Positions 2,841 to 39,686 are shown, counted from the stretch's first letter. The stretch: 64,000 nt of DNA from Dehalococcoidia bacterium (GCA_030612025.1 JAUWOR010000002.1:32001-96000); one strand, 5' to 3'. The notes: a model not told the origin generated them from the sequence alone. Translations and numbers: made by a program.

Positions 2841-2981
2841 AAACGTATTTGACAGGAGTAGTGTGCAGTTGTATTTTAATTTGTGTAATTGTAATAGAAA
2901 TCTGTGTCTCTCTATTGGCACTTAGCGCTAGCTAGAAGCCTGGAATGTGATGCGATATGTCTATATCAATGCGGGGTGAAG

Positions 2982-4628
2982 ATGCCTAAAAGAAAGGAGC
3001 CAGCAATTTATCGAACCACCGGACCCGCAGGCTTTGACTTAAGCCTGCAGGACATTATGGAAGGCTTAGAGGACGAACTTCTGGTCGTCGACAGTGAATA
3101 CCGGGTCAAGTCCGCCAATTCAGCCATACGACACAAGTTGCCTGAGAGCACTGAGTCACCTATTGGTAGGCACTGCTATGAGGTCTTCCATGGCAGAGAC
3201 AAACCCTGCAGCGCCCCCTTATGGGAATGCCCACTCAGAAAAGTGCTGCAAAGCAGCAGCCCAGCAACAATTATTCATCCTGACCGCAATAAGTATATCA
3301 AGGTCACCATGTGGCCGCTAAAAAACAGCCATGGCAGGATCAAGGCAGTGTTTGAGTTGAGGAAAGATATTACCGCAGAAAGAGAACTAGAGAAGGAGAT
3401 TTTGAGACGACACCACCATCTTGATGCCTTGAGTCGCATTTCCTGTGCCGTAAGTGGGTTAACGAACTTAGATGCTATCTTGAATACAGCGTTGGACATT
3501 GTGCTACAGATCTTTGCTGGTAGTGTGGGAGGAATCCTGCTTTTTGATGAACAAATCCAAAAGCTATGTTATAAAGTGCACCGCGGCCTCTCTGCCAAAT
3601 ACGCTGGAGAGATGTGCATTACCATGAACAAGGGGATAGCAGGAAAGGTGGCTCAAACGGGTGAGCCTATTTTGGTAGAAGATATCTCTAAAGACCCAGA
3701 TGCTGCTCGCCCTGATTTGATAACCACAGAAGGTCTTAAAGGATTTGTCAGCGTTCCTCTAAAAGCAAAGGATAAGATTATGGGGGTGATGAATGTCGCC
3801 AGCTATCTACCTGGTCAATTTAGCCCAGACGACATGTACCTCCTGAACTCCATCGGCTACCAGCTAGGCATAGCAATCGAGCAGGCAAAGCTATATAAAA
3901 CGATAGATGATGCCCGAGAAAGATACCAGATATTGCTGAGACAGGCACTCACTATCCAAGAAGAGGAGCGAAAAAGAGTTGCTAGAGAGCTACATGATGA
4001 AACTGGTCAAGAGCTCACTGCCTTGTCGCTTAACCTGCAGGCGCTGACTGAAATGCTGGGAATGAGCGCCGTTCCGGAAGCTGAATTTAACGAGTTGCTT
4101 GAAAAGACTCATTCTATAGCAGTTCGTGCCGGCGCTGAGTTAACCAAACTTATAAGGGAACTCCGCCCTACCTTATTAGACACATTGGGGCTACCTGCTG
4201 CTATTCGTCACCTTGCTGAGACTGCTCTCAGTTCTCAAGGCATTAACGTCTCAACAGAGTTCAAAGGGATGGAGCAGAGGTTGCCAGCGGAAATTGAATT
4301 GGCGCTTTTCCGCATTGCTCAGGAGGCTATTAGTAATGTTGTGAGGCATTCGGAGGCAAAAAATGCCTCTATTCGTGTCGAATGCAATGCCAATAAATGT
4401 GTTTTACAGGTTGGGGATGATGGCAAGGGATTTGATGTTAGCAAGATCACTAGCATCGATCAGACTGGCCGTGGCGCTGGCCTATTCGGTATGAAAGAAA
4501 GGGTAACACTCGTAGGTGGCGAGTGTGCTTATGATTCCCAGCCTGGACAGGGGACTAAAGTTATCGCCAAGGTTCCCATAATCAGGGGCACAGCCAATGC
4601 AGAAGATAAGAATGTTGGTAGTGGATGA
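2982..4628 (+). CDS. PAS/GAF sensor histidine kinase (HisKA_3, NarX/UhpB type)
   Basis: PAS region with CYEVFHGRDKPC, a GAF domain, H-box EERKRVARELHDETGQ, and HATPase motifs DDGKGF/GLFGMKERV. Start moved to ATG 2982. Confidence 0.9.
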   Translation: MPKRKEPAIYRTTGPAGFDLSLQDIMEGLEDELLVVDSEYRVKSANSAIRHKLPESTESPIGRHCYEVFHGRDKPCSAPLWECPLRKVLQSSSPATIIHPDRNKYIKVTMWPLKNSHGRIKAVFELRKDITAERELEKEILRRHHHLDALSRISCAVSGLTNLDAILNTALDIVLQIFAGSVGGILLFDEQIQKLCYKVHRGLSAKYAGEMCITMNKGIAGKVAQTGEPILVEDISKDPDAARPDLITTEGLKGFVSVPLKAKDKIMGVMNVASYLPGQFSPDDMYLLNSIGYQLGIAIEQAKLYKTIDDARERYQILLRQALTIQEEERKRVARELHDETGQELTALSLNLQALTEMLGMSAVPEAEFNELLEKTHSIAVRAGAELTKLIRELRPTLLDTLGLPAAIRHLAETALSSQGINVSTEFKGMEQRLPAEIELALFRIAQEAISNVVRHSEAKNASIRVECNANKCVLQVGDDGKGFDVSKITSIDQTGRGAGLFGMKERVTLVGGECAYDSQPGQGTKVIAKVPIIRGTANAEDKNVGSG

Positions 4629-5250
4629 CCACACCATTGTGCGGGATGGCATCTGCGCCTTGCTAGCTTTGGCTGCAGATATAGAGGTAGTTGGTGAAGC
4701 AGAAAATGGCAGGGAAGCAGTGGAGAAAGTAAAACAGCTTGCCCCTGATGTGGTGCTTATGGACATAGTTATGCCCATTATGGATGGCTTGGAGGCGACA
4801 CGTAGAATACGTAAGGAATTCCCAGAAACAAAGGTGCTGGTGCTGACCCAATACGATGAGGAGGAGTACATCTTCTCCATTATCGAGGCAGGAGCCAAGG
4901 GCTTCATTAGTAAGACAGCAGCATCCTCAGAGCTTGCCTCAGGTATTCGGGCTGTTCACCATGGCGCTTCCTTCCTTTCCCCCACTGCGGCTAAGGTTTT
5001 CGTTGAGGACTTCCAGCTGGGAGCTTCTATGCGGGGAAAACAAGACCCTTATCATCAACTGACAAACAGGGAAAGAGAGGTGCTCAAGCTGGTTGCTGAA
5101 GCATATACCACCAGGGAAATAGCCGACATATTAGCAGTCAGCCCCAAAACTGTAGAAGGACATAAGACCAATCTAATGGATAAACTGGATATCCACAACA
5201 AGACTGACCTTATTAAGTATGCCATACGCAAAGGCATTATAACTGTGTGA
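4597..5250 (+). CDS. NarL/LuxR family response regulator
   Basis: REC domain (VVDDH, DVVLMD) plus LuxR HTH (LTNREREVLKLVAE...TVEGHKTNLMDKL). Confidence 0.93.
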   Translation: MQKIRMLVVDDHTIVRDGICALLALAADIEVVGEAENGREAVEKVKQLAPDVVLMDIVMPIMDGLEATRRIRKEFPETKVLVLTQYDEEEYIFSIIEAGAKGFISKTAASSELASGIRAVHHGASFLSPTAAKVFVEDFQLGASMRGKQDPYHQLTNREREVLKLVAEAYTTREIADILAVSPKTVEGHKTNLMDKLDIHNKTDLIKYAIRKGIITV

Positions 5251-5354
5251 CAGCATGGGCAAAATTTGCCCTTCTCCAACCTCTATTATCCCTTTCTTAG
5301 CATCTCAGATTGCTTAGCAATCCTACTTGTCATTCTGGGCATCCCTCGCTTTGA

Positions 5355-5432
5355 TTGGGTTTTACACCAAAAACAGGGTTAAATCCCACAGAATTCAAGA
5401 GTTAAAACCATACATATTGAGGGAAATCCCTC
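5355..5432 (+). promoter_or_regulatory. Candidate tandem response-regulator binding boxes upstream of the metVF operon
   Basis: Four GGG/GAG-(A/T-rich)-CC(C) boxes spaced about 20 bp apart, the last a near-perfect palindrome gagggaaatccctc (5419-5432). Lies directly after the NarL-type regulator. Confidence 0.35.
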
Positions 5433-5511
5433 TTTTGTTTCACCCTATCTCGAATTACCATATAGCTAAAGATTAAAAGAGGCAGAGTTATGTTTATGAA
5501 GGGAGAAACTA

Positions 5512-7638
5512 ATGTATCCAGCGGGCATTAGTGCCTTTAGAAATTACGACAGCGCTGCTGCTAAAGAAGCTTCCTCGGACCACACCTTTATGCCACCTTG
5601 CCAGGCTGCTTGTCCCTTGCATATGGAGATTAGAGAATACGTTGATTTGATTGCCCAAGGGCGGGTGATGGAGGCATTACAGGTCATAAGGGAAAGCAAT
5701 CCCTTCCCCTCCATCTGTGCTTATGTGTGCACCCACCCTTGTGAAGAGGTTTGCCGACGTGGCCAGGTAGACAAGCCCATTGCTATCAGGGCACTGAAAA
5801 GATTCGCAGTAGAATTTGGCGGCGATAGAATGATCCAGCTTGAAGCTGAGACGACGCACGAGGAGAAGGTAGCCATAGTGGGATCTGGCCCGGCAGGATT
5901 GTCTGCTGCTTACTACCTAAGGAAGCTAGGCTATCCCGTAACTATTTTTGAGGCCTGCTCTGAATTGGGAGGCATGCTGCGAGTGGGTATTCCCAAATAT
6001 CGCCTTCCCCGAGAGATACTCGATACCGAGGTTCAAAGGTTGATTCAAATGGGGATTGAAATTAGGACGAATACGCCAGTGATTTCCTTAGACCTGCTGT
6101 TCAAGATGGGTTATAAAGCCATCTTTGTCACCGTGGGTGCTCATCAAGGCCTTAGGCTGGGAATAGAAGGAGAGGAAAACCCAGGAGTGGTGGATGGAGC
6201 AACTTTCCTCCGCGAGGTGAACCTAGGACTTAAACCATCTATCGGCGAAAGGGTTGCTATAGTAGGAGGCGGCAATGTAGCTGTTGATGCTGCTCGCACG
6301 GCACTTCGATTGGGCGCAAGGGAGGTAAAAATCCTCTACCGCCGCAGTCGAGAAGAAATGCCAGCGGACCCCTCGGAAGTAGCGCAAGCAATAGAGGAAA
6401 AAGTGGAGGTTCTATTCTTAATGACACCAACTAAGATAGAAAGAGAGGATGGACAGTTAGGACTAACTTGCATGCGCATGAAGCTTGGCGAGCCGGATGT
6501 TAGCGGCAGACGTCGGCCAGTGCCCATCCAAGGCAGTGAGTTCAGCATAAAAGTTGACACCTTAATTACTGCTATTGGCCAGGCACCACAAATCCCCGAT
6601 AATTTCCGTCTCCGCATAGGCAGAGGCAGCACTATTCGAGTCGATCCCGTCACTCTCACCACCAATCGGGAAGGTGTTTTCGCTGGAGGCGATGCCGTCA
6701 CTGGACCAGCAACCGTAGTCCAAGCGTTGGCAACTGGGAGACAATCAGCTTTCCGCATTAACGAATATCTCCAGCACAGATATCCATTAGTGAGCAAAGA
6801 CGAAGGGGAAACCTTGACAGGTGACCTCCTCCCCAAAACCATCGAGATGATAAGAAAGCTCAAGCGCTTTGAGCCACCTATCCTTTCTCCCCAAGAAAGG
6901 GCAAAAGAGTTCGAGCCAGTAGAACTTGTTTATGACTGGGAAAGCGCTATCAATGAAGCTAGAAGATGCCTGCGCTGCGGTATGGGCGCTGAGATCTTGT
7001 TTCAAGATAAATGTGCTACCTGTCTCACCTGTTTACGGATTTGTCCTTATCATGTGCCCTACTTGGATGACAGCGGCACAGTCCAAATACCTGCTGACCA
7101 GTGCCAAGCCTGCGGCATATGTGTTGCCGAATGTCCTGCTAAGGCTATAGTTTTGCGCAAGCCACAGGATCGCCGACATATAGATGAGGAGCTTAACCAT
7201 GCCCTTAAATCTGCGGCACAATCGAAGTCAAAGCCCTTGATTTTCGGCTTCTGCTGCCAATACGGGCTTTACGGCACTGGCGCTCTGGCGAGTTTGTGGA
7301 GGGAGGCCAAAGCGGGCATTTGGATAGTGCCTGTCCTATGTGTAGCCAAAATAGAAACTGAGCACATTCTGCGTGCCTTTGAAATGGGTGCTGAGGGTGT
7401 TTTTATCGCCGGATGCGGGCAAGAGCAGTGCGCCAGGGAGGATACTGCCTTCTGGGCTCTACAGCGGATTGAAAAGGCCAGAAGGATACTTCGTCAAATT
7501 GGCTTTGAATCGCAACGCTTGCAAGCTTTCAACCTGCATGCCAATGAAGAGAATCTTGCCAATGCCTTAGATGAATTCACTGAACAAATAGGAGAGCTCT
7601 ACCTAGCTTCAGCAATAAGACAGGAGGTGAAAACTTGA
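5512..7638 (+). CDS. FAD/NAD(P)-dependent oxidoreductase (GltD/NfnB-like) fused to 2x[4Fe-4S] ferredoxin and MvhD/FlpD domains
   Basis: PPCQAACP...CTHPCEEVCRRG, GSGPAGL, GGGNVAVD and GGDAVTGP motifs; CATCLTCLRICP and CQACGICVAECP; C-terminal FGFCC...VLCVAKI...GVFIAGC (MvhD-like). Confidence 0.85.
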   Translation: MYPAGISAFRNYDSAAAKEASSDHTFMPPCQAACPLHMEIREYVDLIAQGRVMEALQVIRESNPFPSICAYVCTHPCEEVCRRGQVDKPIAIRALKRFAVEFGGDRMIQLEAETTHEEKVAIVGSGPAGLSAAYYLRKLGYPVTIFEACSELGGMLRVGIPKYRLPREILDTEVQRLIQMGIEIRTNTPVISLDLLFKMGYKAIFVTVGAHQGLRLGIEGEENPGVVDGATFLREVNLGLKPSIGERVAIVGGGNVAVDAARTALRLGAREVKILYRRSREEMPADPSEVAQAIEEKVEVLFLMTPTKIEREDGQLGLTCMRMKLGEPDVSGRRRPVPIQGSEFSIKVDTLITAIGQAPQIPDNFRLRIGRGSTIRVDPVTLTTNREGVFAGGDAVTGPATVVQALATGRQSAFRINEYLQHRYPLVSKDEGETLTGDLLPKTIEMIRKLKRFEPPILSPQERAKEFEPVELVYDWESAINEARRCLRCGMGAEILFQDKCATCLTCLRICPYHVPYLDDSGTVQIPADQCQACGICVAECPAKAIVLRKPQDRRHIDEELNHALKSAAQSKSKPLIFGFCCQYGLYGTGALASLWREAKAGIWIVPVLCVAKIETEHILRAFEMGAEGVFIAGCGQEQCAREDTAFWALQRIEKARRILRQIGFESQRLQAFNLHANEENLANALDEFTEQIGELYLASAIRQEVKT

Positions 7639-8318
7639 TAGTCGCAGAGCAAAAGCCATTGGATGAAATAAGACGTATGATTGCCCCTTACGAGAAGATA
7701 TTAATACTTGGCTGTGGCACTTGTATGACGGTGTGTAATGCTGGTGGCGAGAAAGAGGTCTCTGTGCTCCATAGTGCATTGAGGGTGGCTCAGGCTAGAG
7801 ATGGTGATGAAACTCACAGTTTCCTGGAATATACAGTGAAACGGCAGTGCGAATTTGAATTCTTAGACATGCTCGTAGACAAAGTCAAGGAAATGGATGC
7901 CATTCTTTCGTTAGGCTGTGGGGTTGGGGTACAGGTGCTAGCCGAGCGCTTCTCAGATACACCCATTTTGCCCGGCGTAAACACGTCTTTTATGGGTGCG
8001 TCTAAGGAGTGGGGTGTTTGGGATGAGCGATGTGCTGCCTGCGGTGATTGCAGACTGGCCGAGACTGCTGGCATCTGCCCCATTACTAGATGCGCCAAGG
8101 GCATACTTAATGGTCCCTGTGCTGGTAGCAAGAACGGTAAATGCGAGGTGAATAAGGATACGGACTGCGCCTGGATACTGATTTATGAGCGCCTGGAGAG
8201 ACTAGGGCAACTGGAGAAAATGCGCCGATATTATCCCCCCAGGAACTTTCGCACCATCCCCAGGCCAAGGAGGCTCGTGAGCAAAGCTGATATTGATCTC
8301 GGAGGGAACGATGGCTAA
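7635..8318 (+). CDS. metV: Methylenetetrahydrofolate reductase Fe-S/zinc-finger subunit MetV
   Basis: GCGTCMTVC and CAACGDC...GICPITRCAKGILNGPCAG...CEV...CAW (MTHFR C-terminal/MetV motif); adjacent to metF. Confidence 0.88.
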   Translation: MIVAEQKPLDEIRRMIAPYEKILILGCGTCMTVCNAGGEKEVSVLHSALRVAQARDGDETHSFLEYTVKRQCEFEFLDMLVDKVKEMDAILSLGCGVGVQVLAERFSDTPILPGVNTSFMGASKEWGVWDERCAACGDCRLAETAGICPITRCAKGILNGPCAGSKNGKCEVNKDTDCAWILIYERLERLGQLEKMRRYYPPRNFRTIPRPRRLVSKADIDLGGNDG

Positions 8319-9210
8319 ATCGCTGTTTGAGGAGAAACTCAATTCCGGCAAGTTTTTGGTCACCACGGAGATCGGACCTCCCAAAGGAGCAGATACCTCA
8401 GAGATAGTTCACCATATAGAGCTACTTAAGGATAAGGTTGATGCTATTAATGTCACCGACCATCAAAGTTCTGTGATGAGGTTTCCCTCTTTGGGTGGTT
8501 GTCTATTAATCAAGGAACACGGCGGAGAGCCTATTCTCCAGATGACCACCCGTGACCGCAATCGCCTGGCGCTTCAAGCAGACCTACTTTTGGCATATTC
8601 TCGGGGCATCAGGAATGTGCTTTGCCTCACCGGCGATGCTATTGAAGTTGGGGATCATAAGGAAGCAAAACCAGTATTTGACCTGGATTCCGTGCAATTA
8701 ATAAGAATGGTCAGGACAATGGAATCAGGGAAGGATCTGGCTGGGCATGATCTTAAGGGCGCCCCAGAATTTTGCCTTGGCGCTTCGGTTCATCCGGCGG
8801 CAGATTTCATTGAGCCACAACTTATCAAATTTGACAAAAAAGTGGCTGCCGGGACGCAATTCTTCCAGACCCAGGGTATATATGACTTGGATTGTCTCCG
8901 CAGATTTATGCAGTATGCCCGCCAGTTCAACGTCAAAATTCTGGCAGGCATTATAGTCCTGGCTTCAGCAAGAATGGCTCGGTATATGAACGATAATGTT
9001 CCTGGGATAATGGTCCCCAATGCCACAATTGACGAACTAGCCAGTGTGGAGAAAGGCAAGGGACTTCAGAAGGGCATTGAAATTGCTGTGCAGTTGATAA
9101 AGACGATAAAGGAGGAAAACCTGTGCCATGGGGTTCATATTATGGCAGTAGGGAGGGAAAGCATCGTGCCTGATATCTTAGAGGCAGTAGGGGTCGGTGT
9201 GCCCGCTTAG
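8311..9210 (+). CDS. metF: Methylenetetrahydrofolate reductase
   Basis: EIGPPKG, INVTD, QMTTRDRNRLALQ, LTGD, FFQTQ and GVHIM motifs. RBS ggaggg before ATG 8311. Confidence 0.92.
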   Translation: MAKSLFEEKLNSGKFLVTTEIGPPKGADTSEIVHHIELLKDKVDAINVTDHQSSVMRFPSLGGCLLIKEHGGEPILQMTTRDRNRLALQADLLLAYSRGIRNVLCLTGDAIEVGDHKEAKPVFDLDSVQLIRMVRTMESGKDLAGHDLKGAPEFCLGASVHPAADFIEPQLIKFDKKVAAGTQFFQTQGIYDLDCLRRFMQYARQFNVKILAGIIVLASARMARYMNDNVPGIMVPNATIDELASVEKGKGLQKGIEIAVQLIKTIKEENLCHGVHIMAVGRESIVPDILEAVGVGVPA

Positions 9211-9284
9211 GTTTTACTAAAGATAGCCCGCGGGTCGAGCGAGCTAATAAAATCTAATAAAGGAGAGCAAGGAGGGGAGACAAA

Positions 9285-10082
9285 ATGGGAAATAACAAAA
9301 AAATCTTAATCGTAGATGATGAGCCTGAATTTCTATTAGCTTTGCAGAGGACTCTAGAAGCCAAATCCTATGAGGTGACTACTGCCAGCAACAAAACAGA
9401 GGCGCAGGAAAAAATCAGGATGAGAGAGCCCGATGTTATTATTCTGGGCACGATGACTCCCCGTGGAGAGGCATTCTCGCTACACAAATGGCTGAAACAA
9501 AATCCCCGAACTAAGGACTCGCCCATTGTGATCATTGATGCTCCACTTGAAAAACGTCTTGTTAGTGGGTGGAGCATGGATGAGGGAGTGCAAATGGAGG
9601 CTGAGGACTATCTAACCAAGCCAATTGAGCCAGCGTCACTTGTGCCTCTAATCCAAGCGCTGCTGGAGAGGGCGATCAAGCGGATAAAAGTGCTCATAGT
9701 AGATGACCACACTGTAATCCGGGATGGCATTCGTGCTGTGCTCGCGCTGCAAAAAGACATTGCGGTAGTAGGTGAGGCCATGGATGGAAAAGACGCAGTG
9801 GGGAAGACTCTCCAGCTTTTGCCTGACGTAGTAGTAATGGACATAGTCATGCCGGTAATGAATGGGCTGGAGGCTACTAAGCGGATATGCAAGGAACGCC
9901 CTCAGACTAAGGTTTTGATGCTAACACAGTATGATGACGAAGAGAATATCCTTATGGCCGAGCAGGTAGGAGCCTATGGATTTATCCCCAAGAGGGCTGC
10001 TAGTTCCCAGCTTCTAACTGGCATAAGATCTGTGTACCAGGGAGAACGACTTCAAAGGCCCACTGCAGCAATTTCTAGCTGA
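9285..10082 (+). CDS. Response regulator with two tandem receiver domains and no output domain
   Basis: ILIVDDE...YLTKP followed by VLIVDDH...VVMD...FIPK; the protein ends without an HTH. Confidence 0.8.
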   Translation: MGNNKKILIVDDEPEFLLALQRTLEAKSYEVTTASNKTEAQEKIRMREPDVIILGTMTPRGEAFSLHKWLKQNPRTKDSPIVIIDAPLEKRLVSGWSMDEGVQMEAEDYLTKPIEPASLVPLIQALLERAIKRIKVLIVDDHTVIRDGIRAVLALQKDIAVVGEAMDGKDAVGKTLQLLPDVVVMDIVMPVMNGLEATKRICKERPQTKVLMLTQYDDEENILMAEQVGAYGFIPKRAASSQLLTGIRSVYQGERLQRPTAAISS

Positions 10083-10175
10083 AAGTCAATGGTAGCATAG
10101 TGCCAAGCTCCTACTTAACAAAATGCAGCTCGGGCCCTTTATAACACGTGTAGCTGTTTTTGAGATTGTTTAATG

Positions 10176-10254
10176 GTCACCCTGAGCGTTAGCGAAGGGT
10201 CTCTAGATTCTTCGCTAACCCTTCGCTTTGCTCAGGGCTTCGGTTCAGAATGAC
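10176..10254. repeat. Palindromic REP/RPE-like element (GTCACCCTGAGC...GCTCAGGG...CAGAATGAC family)
   Basis: Nested inverted repeats: ccctgagc/gctcaggg and gttagcgaag/cttcgctaac. Related copies at 12831, 15568, 18221 and 63372. Confidence 0.75.
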
Positions 10255-10284
10255 AGGTGAATCGCCAAATAAGCTGTTTTTCTC

Positions 10285-10313
10285 TTGAATTACTTAGCAT
10301 TACAAGCTACTAT
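10285..10313 (+). promoter_or_regulatory. Putative sigma70 promoter of lysA (near-leaderless)
   Basis: TTGAAT-17bp-TACTAT, ending 9 bp before the TTG start; no SD sequence. Confidence 0.4.
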
Positions 10314-10322
10314 ATCTAAAAT

Positions 10323-11648
10323 TTGAATACAAACAAAGTACCCAAACTATCCCTCTTCCCCTTAACCACCGAAATAAATAATCAAGGTCATCTTTGCGTC
10401 GGTGGCTGTGATGTCGTTGCGCTAGCTAAGGAGTACGGCACGCCACTGTATATTTTCGATGAGTTCACCCTTCACCACAAGTGCCGTGAATTTAAGGCTG
10501 AGTTCACCAAGCGCTATCCTGATACCTTGGTCATTTACGCCTCGAAAGCTTTCCTAAATAAGGCATTGGCTCTTATTTTCAAAGAGGAAGATTTAGGACT
10601 CGACGTTGTCTCCGGTGGAGAGCTCAGCATTGCTCGCTCGGCAAATTTCCCCTTAGATAAAGTTTACTTCCATGGCAACAACAAGACGCCAGAAGAACTG
10701 GAGCTGGCTCTAAATTGGGGCATCGGTCGGGTTGTGGTAGATAACTTCTATGAGCTTGAACTACTTAGCAGACTAGCTAAAGGAAAAGGGATTATTCAGG
10801 ATATTTTGCTTCGCCTTACCCCTGGAGTTGACTCTCATACTCATGAATATACTACTACAGGAACGCTAGATAGCAAATTCGGCTTCCCATTGGCTACAGG
10901 ACAAGCTGAAGAGGCGGGAAAACGAGCTCTATCAGCTTCTAACCTTAATCTTTTGGGTTTTCATTTTCACCTCGGCTCGCCTATATTTGAAACAAAGCCT
11001 TATGAGTTGGCTATAGAGCTTGTTCTTCGCTTTGCCCATGAAATCAAAGGAGAATTTAGCTTCCAACTCAGTGAATTTAGCATTGGCGGCGGCTTTGCTG
11101 TTCAATACACCTTAGACTCTAAAGTGCCCGCTATAGCTGATTATGCACAGGCCATAACCAGCAAGCTAAACAGCCTTACCTCACTTCTAGAATTAGGCCC
11201 TCCACGACTCATTATTGAGCCAGGAAGGGCAATAGTGGGGCAAGCCGGGGTAGCAGTATATGCTGTAGGAACAATTAAAGAGGTACCCAGAGTAAGAAAA
11301 TATGTCTGCGTTGATGGTGGCATAAGTGATAATATTCGCCCGGCTCTTTACGGAGCCAAATATGAAGCCCTCATAGCTAGTAAAGCTTTAGGGGCGGAAG
11401 AGGGCCCAGTCACAATTGCCGGTAAGCTCTGCGAATCAGGAGATATTCTGATAAGAGACACCAATTTGGCTTCAGTTTCCCCCGGTGATATTATTGCCAT
11501 ACCAGTTTGCGGCGCTTACTCCATCCCCATGTGGAGCAATTACAATGCCCTACCCAGACCAGCTATAGTCATGGTGGATCAAGGCGAAGCACATCTCATT
11601 CGGCGCCGAGAAAGTTATCAAGATTTGATGAGCTTAGACACAATATGA
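10323..11648 (+). CDS. lysA: Diaminopimelate decarboxylase
   Basis: YASKAF (PLP lysine), HGNNK, HFHLGS, EPGRAIV and GKLCESGD motifs. Confidence 0.95.
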   Translation: MNTNKVPKLSLFPLTTEINNQGHLCVGGCDVVALAKEYGTPLYIFDEFTLHHKCREFKAEFTKRYPDTLVIYASKAFLNKALALIFKEEDLGLDVVSGGELSIARSANFPLDKVYFHGNNKTPEELELALNWGIGRVVVDNFYELELLSRLAKGKGIIQDILLRLTPGVDSHTHEYTTTGTLDSKFGFPLATGQAEEAGKRALSASNLNLLGFHFHLGSPIFETKPYELAIELVLRFAHEIKGEFSFQLSEFSIGGGFAVQYTLDSKVPAIADYAQAITSKLNSLTSLLELGPPRLIIEPGRAIVGQAGVAVYAVGTIKEVPRVRKYVCVDGGISDNIRPALYGAKYEALIASKALGAEEGPVTIAGKLCESGDILIRDTNLASVSPGDIIAIPVCGAYSIPMWSNYNALPRPAIVMVDQGEAHLIRRRESYQDLMSLDTI

Positions 11649-32188: not shown

Positions 32189-32222
32189 ATTGCCCATTTT
32201 GGAAAGTGCGGTTTATGTTGAA

Positions 32223-33371
32223 ATGGAAGTGCTAAGCCCTTACAAGGAAGCTACAGAGGTAATAATTGAGGCTGGCGGTGAGCCTCTCAGATTGTGTTAC
32301 CAATGTGGTATTTGCACCGGCATCTGTCCCTGGAATTTGGTTAGAGGCTTTATTGTTCGCCGTATTATTCATGAAGCTCAACTCGGAGCGACAGATTTTG
32401 GCAGCGAAGAGGTCTGGCTTTGTGCTACCTGTCGGGCTTGTGTCCAGAGGTGCCCGCGCGGTGTAGAGATAATTGATGTTATGAGGGCCGCGCGCCGAGC
32501 CGTAGTTAGTTTGGGCATTGGCATTGTCCCTGATGCCCTCAGAATCTCGGCCAAAAACATCGCTGGCGCTGGCAATCCACTTGGCGAAGCCCCAGAAAAA
32601 CGAGGTGATTGGGCCAAGGATTTAGGGGTGAAAAAATTCTCGCCGGGCATGGAAATACTTTATTTCCCGTGTTGTGTTCCTGCATATGATCCTGATGTTA
32701 AAGTGGTGTCTCGGGCTACCGCTACTATCCTCAGCAAATTAGGAGTAGATTTTGGCATTTTAGGCAGTGAGGAGAGATGCTGCGGTGAGGCAATCCGCAA
32801 AGCTGGATATGAAGATACATTTCACAGCCTGGCTCAGAGCAATATTGCTGCCTTTAGTAGCAACGACGTTAAGACTGTAGTGGTCTCCTCACCGCATTGT
32901 TACCACACCTTTAAGAATGAGTATCCTGAACTCGGAGGTGAATTCCAGGTAATTCATATCACTCAATACCTAGTCCAGCTTATTGACCAAGGGAGATTAA
33001 AGTTTTCTAAGGAAATAAATAAAAGGGTAATTTACTCTGATCCCTGTTATTTAGGACGGCACAATGGCATATACGACGAGCCAAGGAAGGTATTACAAAG
33101 TATTCCTGGCGTGGAATTAATTGAATTTCCTGATTCTCGTGAGGATAGTCTTTGTTGTGGTGGCGGTGGCGGCAGAATCTGGATGGAGACCGTGAAGGGA
33201 GAAAGATTTTCTGATATAAGGGTGGAGCAAGCTCTAGAGAAGGGCGCAGATATAATAGCTGTGGCTTGCCCTTACTGCTTCCTCAACTATAGGGATAGCG
33301 TGCTCACTATGGACAAGGCAGAGGTTATTGAGGTTAAAGATGTCTCGGAGCTTGTTGCTGAAGCAATGTAG
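32223..33371 (+). CDS. HdrD-like (Fe-S)-binding oxidoreductase (HdrC-like 2x[4Fe-4S] plus two CCG domains)
   Basis: CYQCGICTGICP, CATCRACVQRCP, ERCCG, DPCYLGR and CCGGGGG motifs. Confidence 0.85.
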   Translation: MEVLSPYKEATEVIIEAGGEPLRLCYQCGICTGICPWNLVRGFIVRRIIHEAQLGATDFGSEEVWLCATCRACVQRCPRGVEIIDVMRAARRAVVSLGIGIVPDALRISAKNIAGAGNPLGEAPEKRGDWAKDLGVKKFSPGMEILYFPCCVPAYDPDVKVVSRATATILSKLGVDFGILGSEERCCGEAIRKAGYEDTFHSLAQSNIAAFSSNDVKTVVVSSPHCYHTFKNEYPELGGEFQVIHITQYLVQLIDQGRLKFSKEINKRVIYSDPCYLGRHNGIYDEPRKVLQSIPGVELIEFPDSREDSLCCGGGGGRIWMETVKGERFSDIRVEQALEKGADIIAVACPYCFLNYRDSVLTMDKAEVIEVKDVSELVAEAM

Positions 33372-33389
33372 CCAAGAGAGAGGGATGAA

Positions 33390-35378
33390 ATGGAAGAGGT
33401 AAAGATTGGTGTTTATGTTTGCCATTGTGGATTAAATATTGCCGGCACGGTAGATGTAGAAGAGGTAGCTAAGTATGCAGCAACCTTACCTTCGGTGGTG
33501 GTGTCCCGTGACTACAGGTATATGTGCTCTGATCCGGGGCAGGATCTGATCAAAAATGATATTAAAGAGTATGGACTTAATCGAGTTGTGGTTGCTTCCT
33601 GCTCCCCAAGGATGCACGAGCCTACCTTCCGCAATGCTTGTCAAGAGGGGGGGCTAAATCCTTATCTCTATGAGCATGCCAATATCAGGGAACACTGTTC
33701 CTGGGTTCACGATGATAAGAAGATAAATACTGAAAAGGCTAAAGATTTGGTAAGAGCGGCAGTAAAGCGAGTTTACCATCATGAGCCTTTAGAGGTTAAG
33801 GAGGCGCCGGTTAACCCTAACGTCTTGGTTGTTGGCGGAGGTATCGCTGGAATTCAGGCTGCTTTGGACATCGCCAACGGTGAAAAGAGGGTCTATCTCG
33901 TGGAGCGGGAACCTAGTATTGGTGGGCACATGATTCAGCTTGATAGGACCTTCCCTACTTTAGACTGCTCTGAATGCATTCTTACCCCAAAGATGGCTGA
34001 TGTGGGGCACCATCCTTTCATCGAGCTTCTAGCCTATAGTGAAGTGGAGGAGGTTTCCGGATCCATAGGCCAATTTAAGGTCAAGGTGAGAAAGAAAGCT
34101 AGACATATAGATGAGAGTAAATGCGTCGGCTGTGGAATTTGTGAGGAGAAATGCCCTTGGAAAGTGCCGAGTGAGTTCGAGATGGGCTTGGCAATGAGAA
34201 AGGCGATTTATATTCCCTTTGCCCAAGCTATCCCCAATCTAGTAACAGTAGACCCAGATCTCTGTGTCTATATTCAATCAAATGGGAAGAAATGTGGAGC
34301 TTGTATAAAGTTCTGTGAAGCGAAAGCCATAACCCCTGAGACTCTTCTTAATCAAACCGACCAAATCATTGAGCTTGAGGTGGGCTCGATCATTGTTGCC
34401 ACCGGCTATGACCAATTTGATCCCTCTGTTATACCTCAATATGGATATGGAAAGTATGACAACGTGTTAACGGGACTTCAATTTGAGAGGATGACCTGTG
34501 CTGCGGGGCCGACTGGTGGCAAAGTTCTATTGAAAGATGGCAGAGAACCAGAGAGTATGGCTATCATACACTGCGTTGGCAGTCGAGACCAGAATTACCA
34601 TGAGTATTGCTCCCGAGTTTGTTGCATGTATGGTCTCAAATATGCCCACTTAATAAAAGAGTTTACTAAAGCCGATGTGTATGAATTTTATATTGATATG
34701 CGTTGCTTTGGAGAAGGTTATGAGGAATTTTACAAACGCTGCTCAGAAGAGGGGGTTAATTTCATAAGGGGCAAGGTAGCCAAGGTTACAGACCAGGCTG
34801 CAACTGAGGAAGAAAAGGGAAAGTTAATCGTAGTTGCTGAGGATACACTTCTAGGAAGGCTGATACGCGTTCCCGTAGATATGGTTATCCTATGTGCTGC
34901 TCTGGAGGCGAGGGCCGATGCTGACAAGGTTGCTAGCCTCTTCACCCTCAATCGGAGGGCAGACGGCTTTTTCCTAGAGAGGCATGTTAAGCTTGACCCT
35001 GTGGCTACGCCAACTGACGGAGTTTTTATCGCCGGTTGTTGCGAAGGACCAAGAGACATACCCGATACTGTAGCTCAAGCTGAAGCAACAGCAGCTAAAG
35101 CTTTATCCCTAATAAGCAAAGGCAAAATCACACTTGAATCCGCCATAGCTAATGTAGATGAGACTCGATGTTTAGGTTGTGGACGATGTGAAGAGATATG
35201 CACTTTCCACGCCCCTAAAGTCATTAGCAAGAACGGGGTCATGGTTTCTGAGATAAATGAGACCTTGTGCAAGGGCTGTGGCGCCTGTGCTGTTGTCTGT
35301 CCCACAGGGGCAATGGTGATTAGGCATTATAAGCCTGAACAAATAATGAGTCAGGTCGGTGCTTTAATGGAAGTATAA
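33390..35378 (+). CDS. hdrA: Heterodisulfide reductase subunit A
   Basis: IGVYVCHCG, ASCSPRMHE, NIREHCSWVH, GGGIAG, TFPTLDC, CVGSRD, CSRVCCMY and C-terminal ferredoxin. Confidence 0.93.
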   Translation: MEEVKIGVYVCHCGLNIAGTVDVEEVAKYAATLPSVVVSRDYRYMCSDPGQDLIKNDIKEYGLNRVVVASCSPRMHEPTFRNACQEGGLNPYLYEHANIREHCSWVHDDKKINTEKAKDLVRAAVKRVYHHEPLEVKEAPVNPNVLVVGGGIAGIQAALDIANGEKRVYLVEREPSIGGHMIQLDRTFPTLDCSECILTPKMADVGHHPFIELLAYSEVEEVSGSIGQFKVKVRKKARHIDESKCVGCGICEEKCPWKVPSEFEMGLAMRKAIYIPFAQAIPNLVTVDPDLCVYIQSNGKKCGACIKFCEAKAITPETLLNQTDQIIELEVGSIIVATGYDQFDPSVIPQYGYGKYDNVLTGLQFERMTCAAGPTGGKVLLKDGREPESMAIIHCVGSRDQNYHEYCSRVCCMYGLKYAHLIKEFTKADVYEFYIDMRCFGEGYEEFYKRCSEEGVNFIRGKVAKVTDQAATEEEKGKLIVVAEDTLLGRLIRVPVDMVILCAALEARADADKVASLFTLNRRADGFFLERHVKLDPVATPTDGVFIAGCCEGPRDIPDTVAQAEATAAKALSLISKGKITLESAIANVDETRCLGCGRCEEICTFHAPKVISKNGVMVSEINETLCKGCGACAVVCPTGAMVIRHYKPEQIMSQVGALMEV

Positions 35379-35380
35379 TA

Positions 35381-35809
35381 ATGGCTGAATTTGAACCTCA
35401 GATCATTGCCTTTACCTGCAATTGGTGCACCTATGCTGCAGCCGATTTAGCTGGAACAAGCCGCATTCATTACCCAGCAAATGTCAGGATTGTAAGGGTG
35501 ATGTGCAGCGGCATGGTAAACCCCATGTATGTCTTTAAAGCCTTTGAGGGTGGTGCCGATGGAGTCATAGTCGCTGGGTGTAACTATACAGACTGCCATT
35601 ACATCGATGGCCCGGTAAAGTGTGATGCCATGTTTGCCAGGCTGAAGAAGATGGTCCTCATACTTGGCTTAGAGGAGGAGAGGTTAAGGCGTGAGATGAT
35701 TTCCACCTCTGAGGGAGTAATATTTGCTCGAGTAGTTGAGGAGATGGTGGAGCAACTCAAGAAATTAGGCCCTTCACCTTTTAAAATTAAAATGGAGACT
35801 CTGGCGTGA
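35381..35809 (+). CDS. mvhD: Hydrogenase iron-sulfur subunit MvhD/FlpD
   Basis: FTCNWCTYAAADLAG, RVMCSG and GC...DCHY motifs. Confidence 0.9.
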   Translation: MAEFEPQIIAFTCNWCTYAAADLAGTSRIHYPANVRIVRVMCSGMVNPMYVFKAFEGGADGVIVAGCNYTDCHYIDGPVKCDAMFARLKKMVLILGLEEERLRREMISTSEGVIFARVVEEMVEQLKKLGPSPFKIKMETLA

Positions 35810-36954
35810 ATTTAGAGGATATTATTCAAGAAACTAAGACCTACTATTGTTTGGAGTGTGGCAAGTGTTCCAGCCTATGCCCTATTTCAAGGTATGATCC
35901 TCAGTATTCGCCACGAGTGATGGTAGAGAATGCCTTGCTTGGACTCGAAGATGAGATAGTTTACAATAAAAAGCTCTTTTCCTGCCTTACATGCTATACC
36001 TGCCAGCTCAAATGCCCCTCTGATGTAGATTATCCTTTATTCATTCAGAAAGCACGGGTTTTAGCCACAGCAGCAGGGCAACACGGGGATTATGCCCATT
36101 CAGGCACCTTGCAATCCATTGCCATGCTTATGGCAAGGTCGCCACTCAAGCAAAATAGATTGGAGTGGCTTAAGAAGGATGGGTATCGCACTTCAGAGAA
36201 GAGCGACGTCATGTTATTCATTGGCTGCTCCCCCTATTTCGAGCCCGTTTTTGAGGACATCCCGATGAGAACGCTAAACATCGCCGAGGCAAGCCTGAAG
36301 GTTCTCAATTCTCTAGGGATAGAGCCTTTGGTGCATCCTGATGAGAGATGCTGTGGGCACGATGCTCTGTGGGTGGGAGATATGGAGACTTTCAAGAAGC
36401 TAGCGGAGCACAATGCTGCCCTTATAAAGGAAAGCGGTGTAAAGAAAGTTATTTTCTTCTGCCCTGAGGGTTATCGCACCTTTAAATTGGATTATCCCAA
36501 TTATGTCAAACTAGATTGCGAGGTTATGCATATTTCCGAACTTTTGGCTCAGAGGCTGGAAACAGAGGGCTTACGCTTTAACGAAGTCAAAAAGAAAGTC
36601 ACTTACCAAGACCCTTGCCGCTTAGGAAGACATTTGGGGATTTACGATGCTCCGAGGAAAGTGCTACAGGCTATCCCTGGGATAGAGCTCGTGGAAATGG
36701 AACATAATAGAGAGGAATCCATCTGCTGTGGCACGAGCTGTTTTACCAATTGCGATTCATATTCCAAGCAGATAAGGGTGGAGAGGCTGCTTGAAGCTAA
36801 AGCCACTGGGGCGGAGACCTTAATCACCTCTTGCCCCAAATGTCAAACCCATTTCAGATGCGCTATGGTGAACAAGGGTGAGGAGAAAGGCCCTGATATA
36901 GAAATAGAGCTTATGGATTTGGTTAATCTGGTAGCAACTTCCCTGGGAGGCTAA
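35806..36954 (+). CDS. HdrD-like (Fe-S)-binding oxidoreductase, second copy
   Basis: CLECGKCSSLCP, CLTCYTCQLKCP, ERCCG, QDPCRLGR and ICCG motifs. Confidence 0.85.
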   Translation: MNLEDIIQETKTYYCLECGKCSSLCPISRYDPQYSPRVMVENALLGLEDEIVYNKKLFSCLTCYTCQLKCPSDVDYPLFIQKARVLATAAGQHGDYAHSGTLQSIAMLMARSPLKQNRLEWLKKDGYRTSEKSDVMLFIGCSPYFEPVFEDIPMRTLNIAEASLKVLNSLGIEPLVHPDERCCGHDALWVGDMETFKKLAEHNAALIKESGVKKVIFFCPEGYRTFKLDYPNYVKLDCEVMHISELLAQRLETEGLRFNEVKKKVTYQDPCRLGRHLGIYDAPRKVLQAIPGIELVEMEHNREESICCGTSCFTNCDSYSKQIRVERLLEAKATGAETLITSCPKCQTHFRCAMVNKGEEKGPDIEIELMDLVNLVATSLGG

Positions 36955-36956
36955 GA

Positions 36957-39686
36957 ATGAATGGGCAAAATGGACATAAATCAGTCTTAGTGATTGGTGG
37001 TGGCATTGCCGGCATTCAAGCCTCGCTCGACTTAGCTAATATGGGTTTTAAAGTTTATCTGGTGGAAAAGTCACCTAGCATTGGGGGGAGGATGGCACAG
37101 CTAGATAAGACCTTTCCCACTAATGATTGTGCCATGTGCATTCTCGCCCCTAGGATGATAGAAGCGAACTCTCACTCTAATATAGACCTTTATACTTATT
37201 CTGAAGTGGAGGATGTCTCTGGAGAGGTTGGCGACTTCAAAGTCAAGATAAAGAGGAATTCACCTTTTGTTGATTGGAGTAAATGCACTGGATGTGGTCT
37301 CTGCGAGGAGGGATGCCCTGTTATCCTGCCCAAGGAATTCGATCAAGGACTTGGGAAAAGAAAAGCTATCTTTATCCCCTTCCCTCAGGCTGTTCCTAAG
37401 AAATATACCATTGATAAGAGGGAGGAGAGGCCATGTAAAGCAGCCTGCATGGATGCTTGCCCTGCTCATACTAATGTGCTGGGTTATATCAAGCTAATTG
37501 CCGAAGGGGAGTTTCAAGAGGCTTATAAGCTTATAAGGGATACAAATCCTCTCCCGGCATCCGTTGGTCGAGTTTGCTACGCTCCCTGTGAGGAAGCTTG
37601 TAATCGAGGGCAGCTTGACGAGCCTATGGCTATCCGCGACCTTAAGAGATTTGCTGCCGACCAAGTGGATATTGAGGAGCTTGAAGTTCCGACTATTACC
37701 AAAACCGATAAGAAGGTAGCGATTGTAGGCTCAGGCCCTGCAGGTCTCGCTGCTGCCAATGACCTTGCCTTGAAAGGGCATGATGTGACTATCTTTGAGG
37801 CTCTTCCCGAACCTGGAGGTATGCTTCGCGTCGGCATCCCTGAATATCGCCTTCCAAAAGAGATTTTGCGGAAGGAGATAGGCTACATCCAGAAGCTTGG
37901 TGTAGAGATAAGAACAGGGGTTCAGGTTGGCAAAGATATTGCGCTGGAAGAATTAAGGAGAAACTATGATGCCCTTTTTATTGCCGCTGGAGCTCACGGT
38001 GGGATGAGACTCAGGGTGGAGGGGGAGGAGCTTCCTGGGGTGATAGAAGGGATAAGATTCCTGCGCGCGGTGAACCTTGGTGAGAAGGTAGAGGTAGGGA
38101 AGAAGACAGCAGTGATTGGCGGAGGGAATACTGCTGTAGACTGTGCTAGAACAGCAAAGCGCCTTGGAGCAGAAGCGGTAAAAATAGTGTATCGTCGTTC
38201 CCGAAGTGAGATGCCAGCTTCTGCAGAAGAAACAGCAGCAGTGGAGGAGGAAGGGATACCAATTGAATTTCTAACCACCCCAACCCGCTTCTTTCCAGAA
38301 AACGGGAAACTTGCCAAGATGGAGTGCGTAAAGATGAAGCTTGGGGAGCCAGATGCCAGCGGTCGTCCTCGACCCATCCCTATCGAGGGCTCCGAGTTCA
38401 CTACTTCGGTGGATACGGTGATTGCTGCTCTTGGCCAGGCTCCGGAAACGGAATTCGTTAAGGAGTTCGGGATCTCGCTCTCCAAGAGAGGCATGATAGA
38501 AATTGATCCTGAGACCGGGGCGACTAACATTGAGGGAGTCTTCGCCGGGGGGGATGTAGTTACCGGACCTGCTTTCGTGATTGATGCCATAGCAGCAGGA
38601 AAAAGGGCGGCTCGCTCCATAGATCGGCATTTGAAAGGAGAGCCTATTGAGGTTAAAGAGGAGGGAAAAGAGCCGGAGAAGCTCTCTGAGGAGGAGGTTG
38701 AGGATAGGAAGAAACGCTTCCCCTCCCAAAAACGGGTGAAGCTGAGAGATGAGCCTATCGGGGAGAGAATAAAGGACTTTCGTGAGGTTTCTTTAGGTTA
38801 TACCGTGGAAGAGGCCATAGAGGAGGCTTCACGCTGCCTTGCAGGACAAATAGAAGGGTGCATCGAGTGTCATGAATGCGCGAAGCGATGCGAGGCAAAT
38901 GCGATAGCTTACACGATGCAAGACGAACACATCGAAATCGATGTCGGTGCGATAATCCTCGCCACAGGCCTTGACCTCTACGATGTCTCACCATTAACGG
39001 AATATGGCTATGGAAAGATAAAGAATGTCGTCACCGCGATAGAATTTGAGAGATTAACTGCAGCATCAGGACCCACTTTCGGAGAGCTCAAGCGCCCTTC
39101 GGACGGAAAGATTCCCCATGCTATAGCCTTCATTCAGTGTGTTGGCTCTCGTGATTTCAAACACAAAGCATACTGCTCCAGTGTCTGCTGCATGCATGCT
39201 ACCAAGGAAGCGATACTAGCCTACGAACATCATCCAGGGACAAAATCCACCATCTTCTATATGGACTTAAGGGCTGTAGGCAAAAGATTCCAAGAATATG
39301 TCACCAGGGCGAAAGAGGAGTACAACGTGACATATATCCGGAGTCGTCCTGGTAGGGTCGCGGTCAACCCGGAAAACCAAAATCCCATCGTGTGGTATGA
39401 GGACACCACTACTACGGAAACAAAGAATATGGAAGTAGATTTAGTGGTTCTTTGTCAGGCAATGACCCCCCGAGGCAGCAAGGAATTAGCAGAGATATTA
39501 GGCATAGAGCTAAATGAATATGGCTTTGTAGAGGTTCCTGATAAATTGTCCCACCCAGTAGATAGCACCAGACCGGGAATATTTGCCTGTGGCTATGTTC
39601 ACAGCCCCAGGGATATCCCAGACTCTGTAACACAAGGGTCAGGGGCAGCAGCTAGAGCAGCCGAGGTCATAGCAGGAGGTAGTTGA
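36957..39686 (+). CDS. hdrA: HdrA-family flavoprotein with inserted GltD/NfnB-like NAD(P)H-binding module (HdrL-type)
   Basis: HdrA motifs (GGGIAGIQASL, TFPTNDCAMC, QCVGSRD, CSSVCCM) are interrupted by CMDACPAH...GRVCYAPCE, GSGPAGL, GGGNTAVD and GGDVVTGP. Confidence 0.85.
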   Translation: MNGQNGHKSVLVIGGGIAGIQASLDLANMGFKVYLVEKSPSIGGRMAQLDKTFPTNDCAMCILAPRMIEANSHSNIDLYTYSEVEDVSGEVGDFKVKIKRNSPFVDWSKCTGCGLCEEGCPVILPKEFDQGLGKRKAIFIPFPQAVPKKYTIDKREERPCKAACMDACPAHTNVLGYIKLIAEGEFQEAYKLIRDTNPLPASVGRVCYAPCEEACNRGQLDEPMAIRDLKRFAADQVDIEELEVPTITKTDKKVAIVGSGPAGLAAANDLALKGHDVTIFEALPEPGGMLRVGIPEYRLPKEILRKEIGYIQKLGVEIRTGVQVGKDIALEELRRNYDALFIAAGAHGGMRLRVEGEELPGVIEGIRFLRAVNLGEKVEVGKKTAVIGGGNTAVDCARTAKRLGAEAVKIVYRRSRSEMPASAEETAAVEEEGIPIEFLTTPTRFFPENGKLAKMECVKMKLGEPDASGRPRPIPIEGSEFTTSVDTVIAALGQAPETEFVKEFGISLSKRGMIEIDPETGATNIEGVFAGGDVVTGPAFVIDAIAAGKRAARSIDRHLKGEPIEVKEEGKEPEKLSEEEVEDRKKRFPSQKRVKLRDEPIGERIKDFREVSLGYTVEEAIEEASRCLAGQIEGCIECHECAKRCEANAIAYTMQDEHIEIDVGAIILATGLDLYDVSPLTEYGYGKIKNVVTAIEFERLTAASGPTFGELKRPSDGKIPHAIAFIQCVGSRDFKHKAYCSSVCCMHATKEAILAYEHHPGTKSTIFYMDLRAVGKRFQEYVTRAKEEYNVTYIRSRPGRVAVNPENQNPIVWYEDTTTTETKNMEVDLVVLCQAMTPRGSKELAEILGIELNEYGFVEVPDKLSHPVDSTRPGIFACGYVHSPRDIPDSVTQGSGAAARAAEVIAGGS

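Follow-up and report, generated by a model that had tools for sequence, protein, structure and literature searches.

A GltD-ferredoxin-MvhD fusion encoded with MetV and MetF in a Dehalococcoidia genome: a putative non-bifurcating, NADPH-linked methylene-tetrahydrofolate reductase

Here we describe a gene cassette at positions 5512-9210 of a 64,000-nucleotide (nt) stretch of DNA (hereafter the window; JAUWOR010000002.1:32001-96000, in our numbering contig C5:32001-96000) from the genome of a Dehalococcoidia bacterium (GCA_030612025.1; 1.40 Mb, 19 contigs, 95.6% complete). Three overlapping open reading frames (ORFs) fill this region on the + strand and encode a 708-amino-acid (aa) fusion of a GltD-like flavin module, a ferredoxin domain and an MvhD domain, followed by MetV and MetF. 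We propose that the three genes code for one soluble methylene-tetrahydrofolate reductase (MTHFR) of the methyl branch of the Wood-Ljungdahl pathway. Judged from sequence, this enzyme is probably, though by no means certainly, a linear, non-bifurcating NADPH:methylene-tetrahydrofolate (methylene-THF) oxidoreductase, most likely resembling type III MTHFR in function and a cut-down type IV in structure.

Results

The gene of the fusion, the putative electron-input subunit, lies at 5512-7638 (+ strand). Its TGA stop shares four nt (TTGA) with the TTG start of metV (7635-8318, +; 227 aa, iron-sulfur subunit, Pfam DUF5981 at 7.6e-37), which is preceded by GGAGGTG. MetF, the flavin-containing methylene-THF reductase subunit (8311-9210, +; Pfam MTHFR at 6.6e-38), likely starts at ATG 8311, which is preceded by GGAGGG, overlaps the metV end by 8 nt and gives a protein of about 299 aa; the mechanical ORF call (8293-9210) would place the start at TTG 8293 and give a 26-nt overlap. 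As in MetVF-type cores, an MTHFR-family MetF adjoins a DUF5981 MetV with conserved cysteines, 12 of which are invariant in an alignment of 16 MetV sequences. An earlier note made from the DNA alone had described three overlapping genes, the first of them joining a GltD-like NAD(P)H/FAD (flavin adenine dinucleotide) module, 2x[4Fe-4S] and an MvhD-like domain, and had assumed translational coupling. The exact ORF coordinates, the Pfam assignments and the gene overlaps agree with this description throughout.

The N-terminal cluster domain of the fusion (5590-5817, +; residues 27-102; Pfam Fer4_20 at 9.6e-21, profile positions 29-107 of 113) contains C30, C34, C69, C73, C77, C81 and K96 (codon 5797-5799). 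It is followed by the FAD and NAD(P)H Rossmann domains (5866-6738, +; residues 119-409; Pfam Pyr_redox_2 at 5.6e-33) and, behind the flavin domain, by a CxxC motif of the form EA-RCLRC (6955-6978, +; residues 482-489 with C486 and C489). The 2x[4Fe-4S] ferredoxin domain (7003-7149, +; 4Fe-4S dicluster match at residues 498-546, 7e-6; Fer4_10/Fer4_7 in Pfam) carries C501, C504, C507 and C511 as well as C531, C534, C537 and C541. The C-terminal MvhD (FlpD) domain (7240-7599, +; FlpD match at residues 577-696, Pfam 2.7e-23) has a putative [2Fe-2S] site at C582, C610, C635 and C640 and aligns to the MvhD structure 5odc_D at 3.3e-16; the FlpD match ends 12 residues short of the metV start, so that the MvhD module adjoins MetV. 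With NCBIfam, residues 18-549 matched the GltD-like model "NAD(P)-binding protein" with 501.9 bits, just missing its cut-off of 516, and the HdrA2 model covered only residues 497-696, i.e. the ferredoxin and MvhD tail. The AlphaFold2 model of the fusion had a mean local confidence (pLDDT) of 85.9 and a global fold score (pTM) of 0.85.

To assess conservation, 27 full-length fusions with 34-79% identity to the query, drawn from a search of representatives at 50% identity, were aligned with it (n = 28). All 28 keep K96, C34, C73, C77, C81, C486, C489, C635 and the eight cysteines of the ferredoxin domain. Somewhat fewer retain C30 (27), C582 and C640 (26 each) and C69 and C610 (25 each). C582, C610, C635 and C640 would be the ligands of a single MvhD [2Fe-2S] cluster, and the predicted cofactors of the fusion are accordingly one FAD, four [4Fe-4S] clusters, one of them Lys-ligated, and this [2Fe-2S] cluster. 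The Fer4_20 match lacks profile positions 1-28, and the EA-RC..C motif, with which the Fer4_20 domain of NfnL, GltD and dihydropyrimidine dehydrogenase (DPD) begins, stands behind the flavin domain in the fusion as it does in StnC, 9bov_A and 9n5u_A. Relative to NfnL, GltD and DPD, the cluster domain is thus permuted. The homology to StnC extends through residue 542 and therefore takes in the permuted CxxC motif as well as the cluster that comes next in the wire of StnC.

The solved proteins closest in sequence to the fusion are 9bov_A (C. saccharolyticus NfnABC; 6e-122) and 9n5u_A (T. sibiricus NfnA; 5e-121), followed by 8oh5_C (S. ovata StnC; 7e-105) and 4ylf_B (T. maritima NfnB, a classical NfnL; 6e-84), with GltD and DPD scoring below the last (DPD 1.4e-42). 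A Foldseek search with the AlphaFold2 model gave the same picture, 9bov_A, 9n5u_A and 8oh5_C filling ranks 1-3 and 9n5v_A, a second T. sibiricus entry, rank 4; then came NfnL, GltD and DPD, the last from rank 12 down. The module, which the earlier note had called NfnB-type, is by sequence and fold nearer to the NfnL-like domain of StnC/NfnA. Passages of two structural studies (PMC10482914, PMC12018979) state that the FAD of this domain in StnC/NfnA does not bifurcate, that the NADPH electrons enter a linear cluster chain from it, and that a Lys (StnC K170, Tsi K165) joins three Cys in ligating the proximal [4Fe-4S] cluster, at the position occupied by a Glu in bifurcating NfnL. K96 of the fusion falls in the column of StnC K170, which holds Glu in T. 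maritima NfnB (4ylf_B), and the Lys takes the place of the NfnL-type Glu in each of the 28 fusions. An NfnL-like domain with Lys at the proximal cluster and an NADPH-type pocket is the combination found in StnC and Bfu-type NfnA.

The NAD(P)H pocket motif YRRS..EMPA is encoded at 6337-6366 (+; residues 276-285, with YRRS at residues 276-279, 6337-6348). In the form YRR[ST]..EMPA it is common to the fusion, StnC, 9bov_A and 9n5u_A, and StnC was solved with NADPH bound, as an excerpt of PMC10482914 reports. Among the query and the 120 close homologues listed, 113 of 121 have YRR and 8 have CLES; the CLES sub-clade, with the relatives P0020, P0022, P0024, P0025, P0029, P0033 and P0061, is about 80% identical overall. 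The 28 diverse fusions divide into 13 with YRR and 15 with CLE[SAKC] or a near form, one of which is SLEK. In a second phylum, that of a record labelled as a Clostridiales metagenome-assembled genome, CLE was present in 9/9 fusions whose motif the script detected and also in a 1487-aa HdrA-like protein with a GltD insertion. Loss of both arginines together with gain of a glutamate is the usual sign of NADH preference in Rossmann folds. Because of this rule and the motif match to NADPH-bound StnC, we favour NADPH as the substrate of the window's enzyme and NADH as that of the CLE forms.

Gene order links the fusion to MetVF in the window's relatives. Of 18 loci from species genomes, 10 encode a close relative of the fusion (79-99% identity), and MetV stands directly behind it in all 10. 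MetF follows in nine of them, while the tenth contig stops inside metV; in 8/10 the MetV match begins on the final base of the fusion's last codon, as it does in the window. The remaining eight loci encode GltD-like proteins that end near residue 490-550, without the MvhD part, and no MetV or MetF match was found near them. At least 120 clusters at 74-98% identity and about 27 further 50%-identity clusters of the same length and layout were found. Other clusters of the fusion bear source labels of Planctomycetota, Actinomycetota, Bacillota, Spirochaetota and Anaerolineae. In a survey of 401 Chloroflexota genomes, with two candidates scored per genome, 90 had a GltD-like match at E<=1e-100 and only five the full fusion. 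Three of these have fusion-metV-metF, namely the window's own genome (G000), G087 (same family, 85% identity) and G284. Neither of the scored matches is a full fusion in the four remaining genomes of the window's family, where the listed ones end near residues 490-545. Among 301 genomes of the second phylum, with two or three candidates scored in each, 10 encode the full fusion, and metV-metF lies directly behind it in two (G646, G507).

In a metagenome survey with generic FAD/NAD(P)H glycine motifs as patterns, most of the 80 retained loci encode other GltD-like proteins, so that the survey does not lend itself to synteny counts. Two of the loci (L036, L055) have a GltD-like gene that ends near residue 491 and is followed directly by MetV-MetF, and a third (L066) has Fd-MvhD-MetV-MetF behind a separate GltD gene. 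Five loci match to at least residue 668 (L035, L038, L048, L049, L069), and no MetV or MetF was found in the DNA retrieved for them, which in L035 ends 187 nt past the match; three of the five span about 3 kb and represent larger arrangements.

Contacts between MetV (16-row alignment) and residues 480-708 of the fusion (28-row alignment) were predicted from our own alignments, for which the calibration is only rough. The interface score ipSAE was 0.47 (runs 0.47, 0.49 and 0.44), in comparison to 0.01 for the best of three controls, with 100% contact agreement between the runs and a partner pLDDT of at least 79. In the calibration of the tool, 58 of 80 solved complexes and 2 of 110 mismatched pairs attain the ipSAE mark; both mismatches, but only 7 of the 80 complexes, do so with values up to 0.60. 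Our copy of the PDB has no MetV chain, so that the prediction is no recall of a solved complex. We regard it as a small supplement to the evidence from gene order. In RNA run X1 (0.09 of sampled words), an 843-nt contig with 34 differences spans the metV/metF junction at 8149-8982 (90% likeness; the contig comes from a relative). Other X1 contig pieces lie on parts of 7813-9262 and none on 5200-7812, and run X2 gave none. These contigs stem from a relative, a contig over two genes need not be one transcript, and an RNA library may contain DNA.

The cassette is flanked by regulatory genes. Upstream lie a sensor histidine kinase (2904-4628, +; PAS-GAF-HisKA_3-HATPase in Pfam) and a NarL/LuxR-type response regulator (4597-5250, +; REC and GerE in Pfam and NCBIfam), and downstream a REC-REC protein without output domain (9285-10082, +; two Response_reg stretches in Pfam). 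The kinase and the NarL-type regulator recur in 6/6 close loci with enough upstream DNA (L001, L002, L003, L004, L007, L008) and the REC-REC gene in 6/6 with downstream DNA (L003, L005, L007, L008, L009, L010). A region of about 140 nt ahead of the fusion gene (5370-5511, +) is conserved over six aligned loci and contains a hairpin (5419-5432) followed by a T-run, 80 nt ahead of the fusion start codon, the stem being held via G-U or changed pairs. It may either terminate transcription of the kinase and regulator genes or act as a leader element. A riboswitch was considered and dropped, the best Rfam match being at E=2.1 (none at E<=1 in 5150-5600) and the consensus fold weak (-6.06 kcal/mol). 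A scan of 4500-10500 for sigma-70 promoters gave 7 sites where 6.8 were expected.

The genome encodes a CODH/ACS (carbon monoxide dehydrogenase/acetyl-CoA synthase) cluster of archaeal type on the same contig, 26-31 kb upstream of the cassette (C5:666-12100, locus L031; CdhA, B, C, D and E-like together with NuoE/F-like and CooC-like genes). It includes a 768-aa CdhA with inserted ferredoxin, an epsilon subunit and a 413-aa CdhC, and a fragment of formyltetrahydrofolate synthetase (FTHFS) lies at the contig start. Since this cluster, FTHFS and FolD were all found in the genome, the MetVF enzyme would serve a complete Wood-Ljungdahl pathway.

Altogether, four MTHFR-family genes and five MvhD modules were counted in the genome. 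Contig C4 carries two further MetVF sets, linked to a [NiFe] hydrogenase and to HdrA-MvhD, respectively. The former (L029:4095-8790) consists of the hydrogenase small subunit (295 aa, with no twin-arginine motif seen in its N-terminus), the large subunit, a HycI protease and then MetV-MetF. With no MvhD or Hdr gene in between, this set may code for an H2-linked MTHFR. The fourth metF stands alone, without an adjacent metV, at L029:9120-10067 (- strand). The third set (L029:10309 to L030:4805) begins with a kinase, two single-receiver proteins, HdrA as two overlapping ORFs, MvhD, MetV and MetF and continues with HdrC-like and NuoE/F-like genes, a 1089-aa Fer2/Fer4/HdrA-like protein and another MvhD. 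Like the window's set, this Hdr-linked set carries its own two-component genes. Of the other MetF copies, the Hdr-linked one is the most similar to that of the cassette at 5512-9210 (63% identity, against 42-44% for the remaining two); the hydrogenase-linked and the lone MetF share 68% identity.

The window contains two more GltD modules, one within an HdrA scaffold (47% identical to the fusion) and one within a NuoF scaffold (53%), both with YRR and the Lys motif. The HdrA-embedded module belongs to tandem Hdr clusters at 32190-44892. The first is HdrBC-HdrA-MvhD (32190-35809); in the second (35806-44426), HdrBC is followed by a 909-aa HdrA with GltD insertion, by a 559-aa HdrA C-part encoded apart from it in a different frame, and then by MvhD and subunits of an Mvh-type [NiFe] hydrogenase. 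The other module is part of a 1026-aa NuoF::GltD fusion that is encoded with a NuoE-like gene and, beside it, an 890-aa formate-dehydrogenase-like molybdopterin subunit (46987-53160, -). Its identity of 53% covers residues 29-491 of the fusion, and the permuted CxxC is kept as well.

Discussion

From the order of the genes, their homology and conservation and the domains and ligands of their products we infer a complex of the three proteins in which MetF would be the catalytic flavoprotein, MetV its iron-sulfur partner and the 708-aa fusion the electron-input subunit. NADPH as the presumed donor would reduce the FAD of the GltD-like module. From there single electrons would pass over the Lys-ligated proximal [4Fe-4S] cluster, the distal [4Fe-4S] cluster and the two [4Fe-4S] clusters of the ferredoxin domain to the [2Fe-2S] cluster of MvhD, and onward via the MetV clusters and the MetF flavin to methylene-THF. 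Such a chain would require no second acceptor and no bifurcation, and in principle it could run in the reverse direction, oxidizing methyl-THF and yielding NADPH. The flanking kinase/regulator pair may set the expression of the cassette, and the other MetVF sets of the genome may be kept for other donors, namely H2 and Hdr-linked ones.

Several observations weigh against this proposal. The score of MetV with residues 480-708 lies in the weak band of the tool (verdict "weak support"). NADPH specificity is insecure because YRR also occurs in HdrA-like proteins of about 1480-1500 aa, i.e. it is the default of the family, and because the GltD-bearing HdrA of Moorella is reported, in passages of PMC8760232 and PMC9430772, to oxidize NADH. 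Moreover, gene order does not link the fusion to metVF in every genome. In G371 it stands within the series HdrA(1023 aa)-MvhD-fusion-MetV-HdrCB, with no metF within the 14 kb examined, and therefore teams up with Hdr parts in some organisms. In G077 it is an orphan near genes of a carboxyltransferase, a HAD hydrolase and a G3P dehydrogenase, and in the second phylum 8/10 fusions have no metV within 1.5 kb downstream (loci L162-L168 of genomes G673, G699, G568, G616, G531, G583 and G547 have the fusion apart from metVF). Upstream of these orphans are an FMN-reductase-like gene in L162 and a PPDK gene in L168, and dnaG and rpoD stand just downstream in both loci annotated on that side (L162, L167). 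The architecture next to metVF, which the earlier note had proposed to survey, was thus recovered in G000, G087 and G284 and, as regards metV, in G371, but not in G077 or in most fusions of the second phylum. These cases would fit a general NAD(P)H-to-MvhD adaptor for any partner that accepts electrons from MvhD (Hdr-like proteins, hydrogenase or MetVF), the adjacency to metVF reflecting mere co-regulation or a larger Hdr/Mvh complex encoded elsewhere in the window. The two Hdr-MvhD clusters of the window and the reuse of the GltD module in its HdrA and NuoF scaffolds point the same way. However, in the window's own clade the genes overlap, have their own ribosome-binding sites and are followed by metV without exception. 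Furthermore, all five orphan-fusion genomes examined have exactly one metV-metF pair located elsewhere, with a MetV 45-51% identical to the window's, as in the two linked genomes of the second phylum, which fits partnership in trans. The prediction of MetV with the C-terminal part of the fusion also passed its controls, if weakly. We therefore consider a general adaptor improbable for the window's enzyme, although the GltD module appears, from the loci compared, to be a movable NAD(P)H plug for which MetVF is a frequent but not the sole socket.

The earlier note had also suggested that the enzyme might bifurcate electrons. A minimal bifurcating or confurcating MTHFR would oxidize two NADPH, sending one electron pair to methylene-THF via MvhD and MetV and the other uphill to ferredoxin via the [4Fe-4S] clusters, with the FAD of the GltD module or the MetF flavin as branch point. 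The fold is that of NfnL/NfnB, the sole GltD-type flavoprotein known to bifurcate, and the fusion has two kinds of cluster arms, [4Fe-4S] chains and the MvhD [2Fe-2S], the latter of the kind that accepts the high-potential electron in NfnSL. C69, which is present in NfnL and absent from StnC, is kept in most of the fusions. R164, which corresponds to an Arg in contact with flavin N5 in bifurcating NfnL, is invariant (28/28); an Arg of this type is common to bifurcating and non-bifurcating enzymes, so that sequence alone is compatible with a bifurcating flavin, which is a further point against our proposal. For an estimate of the energy at hand we used an NADPH potential of -320 mV. Reduction of methylene-THF (E0' -200 mV, as given in a passage of PMC9430772) with NADPH would free about 23 kJ/mol by our own calculation, and a bifurcating MTHFR has long been proposed, according to parts of PMC8760232. 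Nevertheless, the nearest solved relatives, StnC and NfnA, have the non-bifurcating version of the fold, the proximal ligand is Lys and not the Glu of NfnL, and the homology to StnC reaches the next cluster of a linear wire. No partner of NfnS/NfnA type ([2Fe-2S] and FAD, PyrK-like) was found in the cassette with Pfam, and the three DHODB_Fe-S_bind ORFs of the genome sit on other contigs (C1, C8, C12). Due to the kinship with StnC/NfnA and K96 in place of the NfnL Glu, bifurcation is the less likely reading, and we regard it as rather unlikely in comparison to the linear NADPH:methylene-THF oxidoreductase.

The 2021 classification distinguishes four MTHFR types, none of which includes a GltD-ferredoxin-MvhD subunit in the passages of PMC8760232 that describe them. 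The cassette lies outside these types because its extra subunit is neither RnfC2 nor HdrCBA. Type IV (HdrCBA-MvhD-MetVF of Moorella thermoacetica and Sporomusa ovata), as outlined in parts of PMC8760232 and PMC9430772, has the same MetV-MetF core with MvhD beside MetV, and in Moorella the pyridine-nucleotide site is likewise a GltD domain, inserted in HdrA, which is a precedent for such a site in an MTHFR complex (PMC9430772, in part). The cluster in G371 joins both designs. Unlike type IV, the window's cassette lacks the thioredoxin-reductase-like flavin domain of HdrA, the CCG domain of HdrB and HdrC (no CCG or HdrA-type ORF was found with Pfam between 2904 and 10082), MvhD is fused and not free, and the input subunit has one flavin instead of two or three. 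Type III (RnfC2-MetV-MetF of Acetobacterium woodii; passages of PMC8760232) also has three subunits, the extra one with a pyridine-nucleotide site and Fe-S clusters, and it is soluble and non-bifurcating, the behaviour we predict for the window's enzyme. The input subunits nevertheless belong to unrelated families, in type III RnfC/NuoF-like with flavin mononucleotide (FMN) and NADH, here GltD-like with FAD and MvhD; neither Pfam nor NCBIfam gave a Complex1_51K or RnfC match on the three products. The compact three-subunit type of the earlier note, with an Nfn-like module replacing Hdr, holds as far as the three genes and the GltD-type module as sole NAD(P)H site are concerned; as a replacement of Hdr it holds only partly, since in Moorella HdrA and in G371 the module is kept as part of Hdr.

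With the domain in StnC/NfnA (8OH5, 9N5U, 9BOV) the fusion shares the Lys ligand, the permuted EA-RC..C motif, the YRR pocket and the following [4Fe-4S] cluster. There, however, the module is embedded in a NuoG/FdhF-like subunit that feeds a NuoEF-type bifurcating core, whereas the fusion ends in ferredoxin and MvhD domains and adjoins MetVF, and it keeps C69. No NuoE/F (BfuBC-type) genes and no NuoG/FdhF-like body were found in the cassette with Pfam. NfnL/NfnB of NfnSL (4YLF, 5JCA) has the same fold, the FAD and NADPH sites and two N-terminal [4Fe-4S] clusters, but it has Glu where the fusion has K96, requires NfnS, which is absent from the cassette, and carries its CxxC N-terminally, not permuted. 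DPD (1H7X and others) follows the same logic in one chain, with N-terminal clusters, FAD/NADPH domains and a C-terminal 2x[4Fe-4S] domain that wires NADPH to a distant flavin, but it has its own FMN barrel and no MvhD, and the sequence similarity is far lower.

Searches aimed at this question in openly accessible article texts gave no description of a GltD-ferredoxin-MvhD fusion with MetVF. Parts of the report by Sewell et al. (PMC5736913) describe hdrABC-mvhD-metVF as well as two-component genes beside metF in marine Chloroflexi, and NfnB-like insertions in HdrA appear in passages on ANME-1 (PMC9012536) and Moorella (PMC9430772). What our analysis adds are the non-bifurcating signature, the YRR/CLE dichotomy, the Hdr-embedded intermediate in G371 and the genome with three cassettes.

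How much ATP the Wood-Ljungdahl pathway yields depends on the way MTHFR is wired to electron carriers, and parts of PMC8760232 and PMC9430772 present this wiring as still open for two of the four named types. The cassette described here would represent a fifth subunit arrangement, which with three proteins and one NAD(P)H site is simple enough for expression and assay. The cassette is common in uncultured subsurface Dehalococcoidia. On a bolder and less likely reading, fusions unlinked from metVF could be the physiological donor that is missing for apparent "MetVF-only" enzymes. If the enzyme did bifurcate, it would be the smallest electron-bifurcating methylene-THF reductase and would provide energy coupling at the MTHFR step with three proteins in uncultured Wood-Ljungdahl organisms. 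A natural experiment is also at hand: among fusions still about 80% identical overall, the pocket changes between YRR and CLE, and in one 1.4-Mb genome the same MetVF core is combined with three different input modules under separate regulators.

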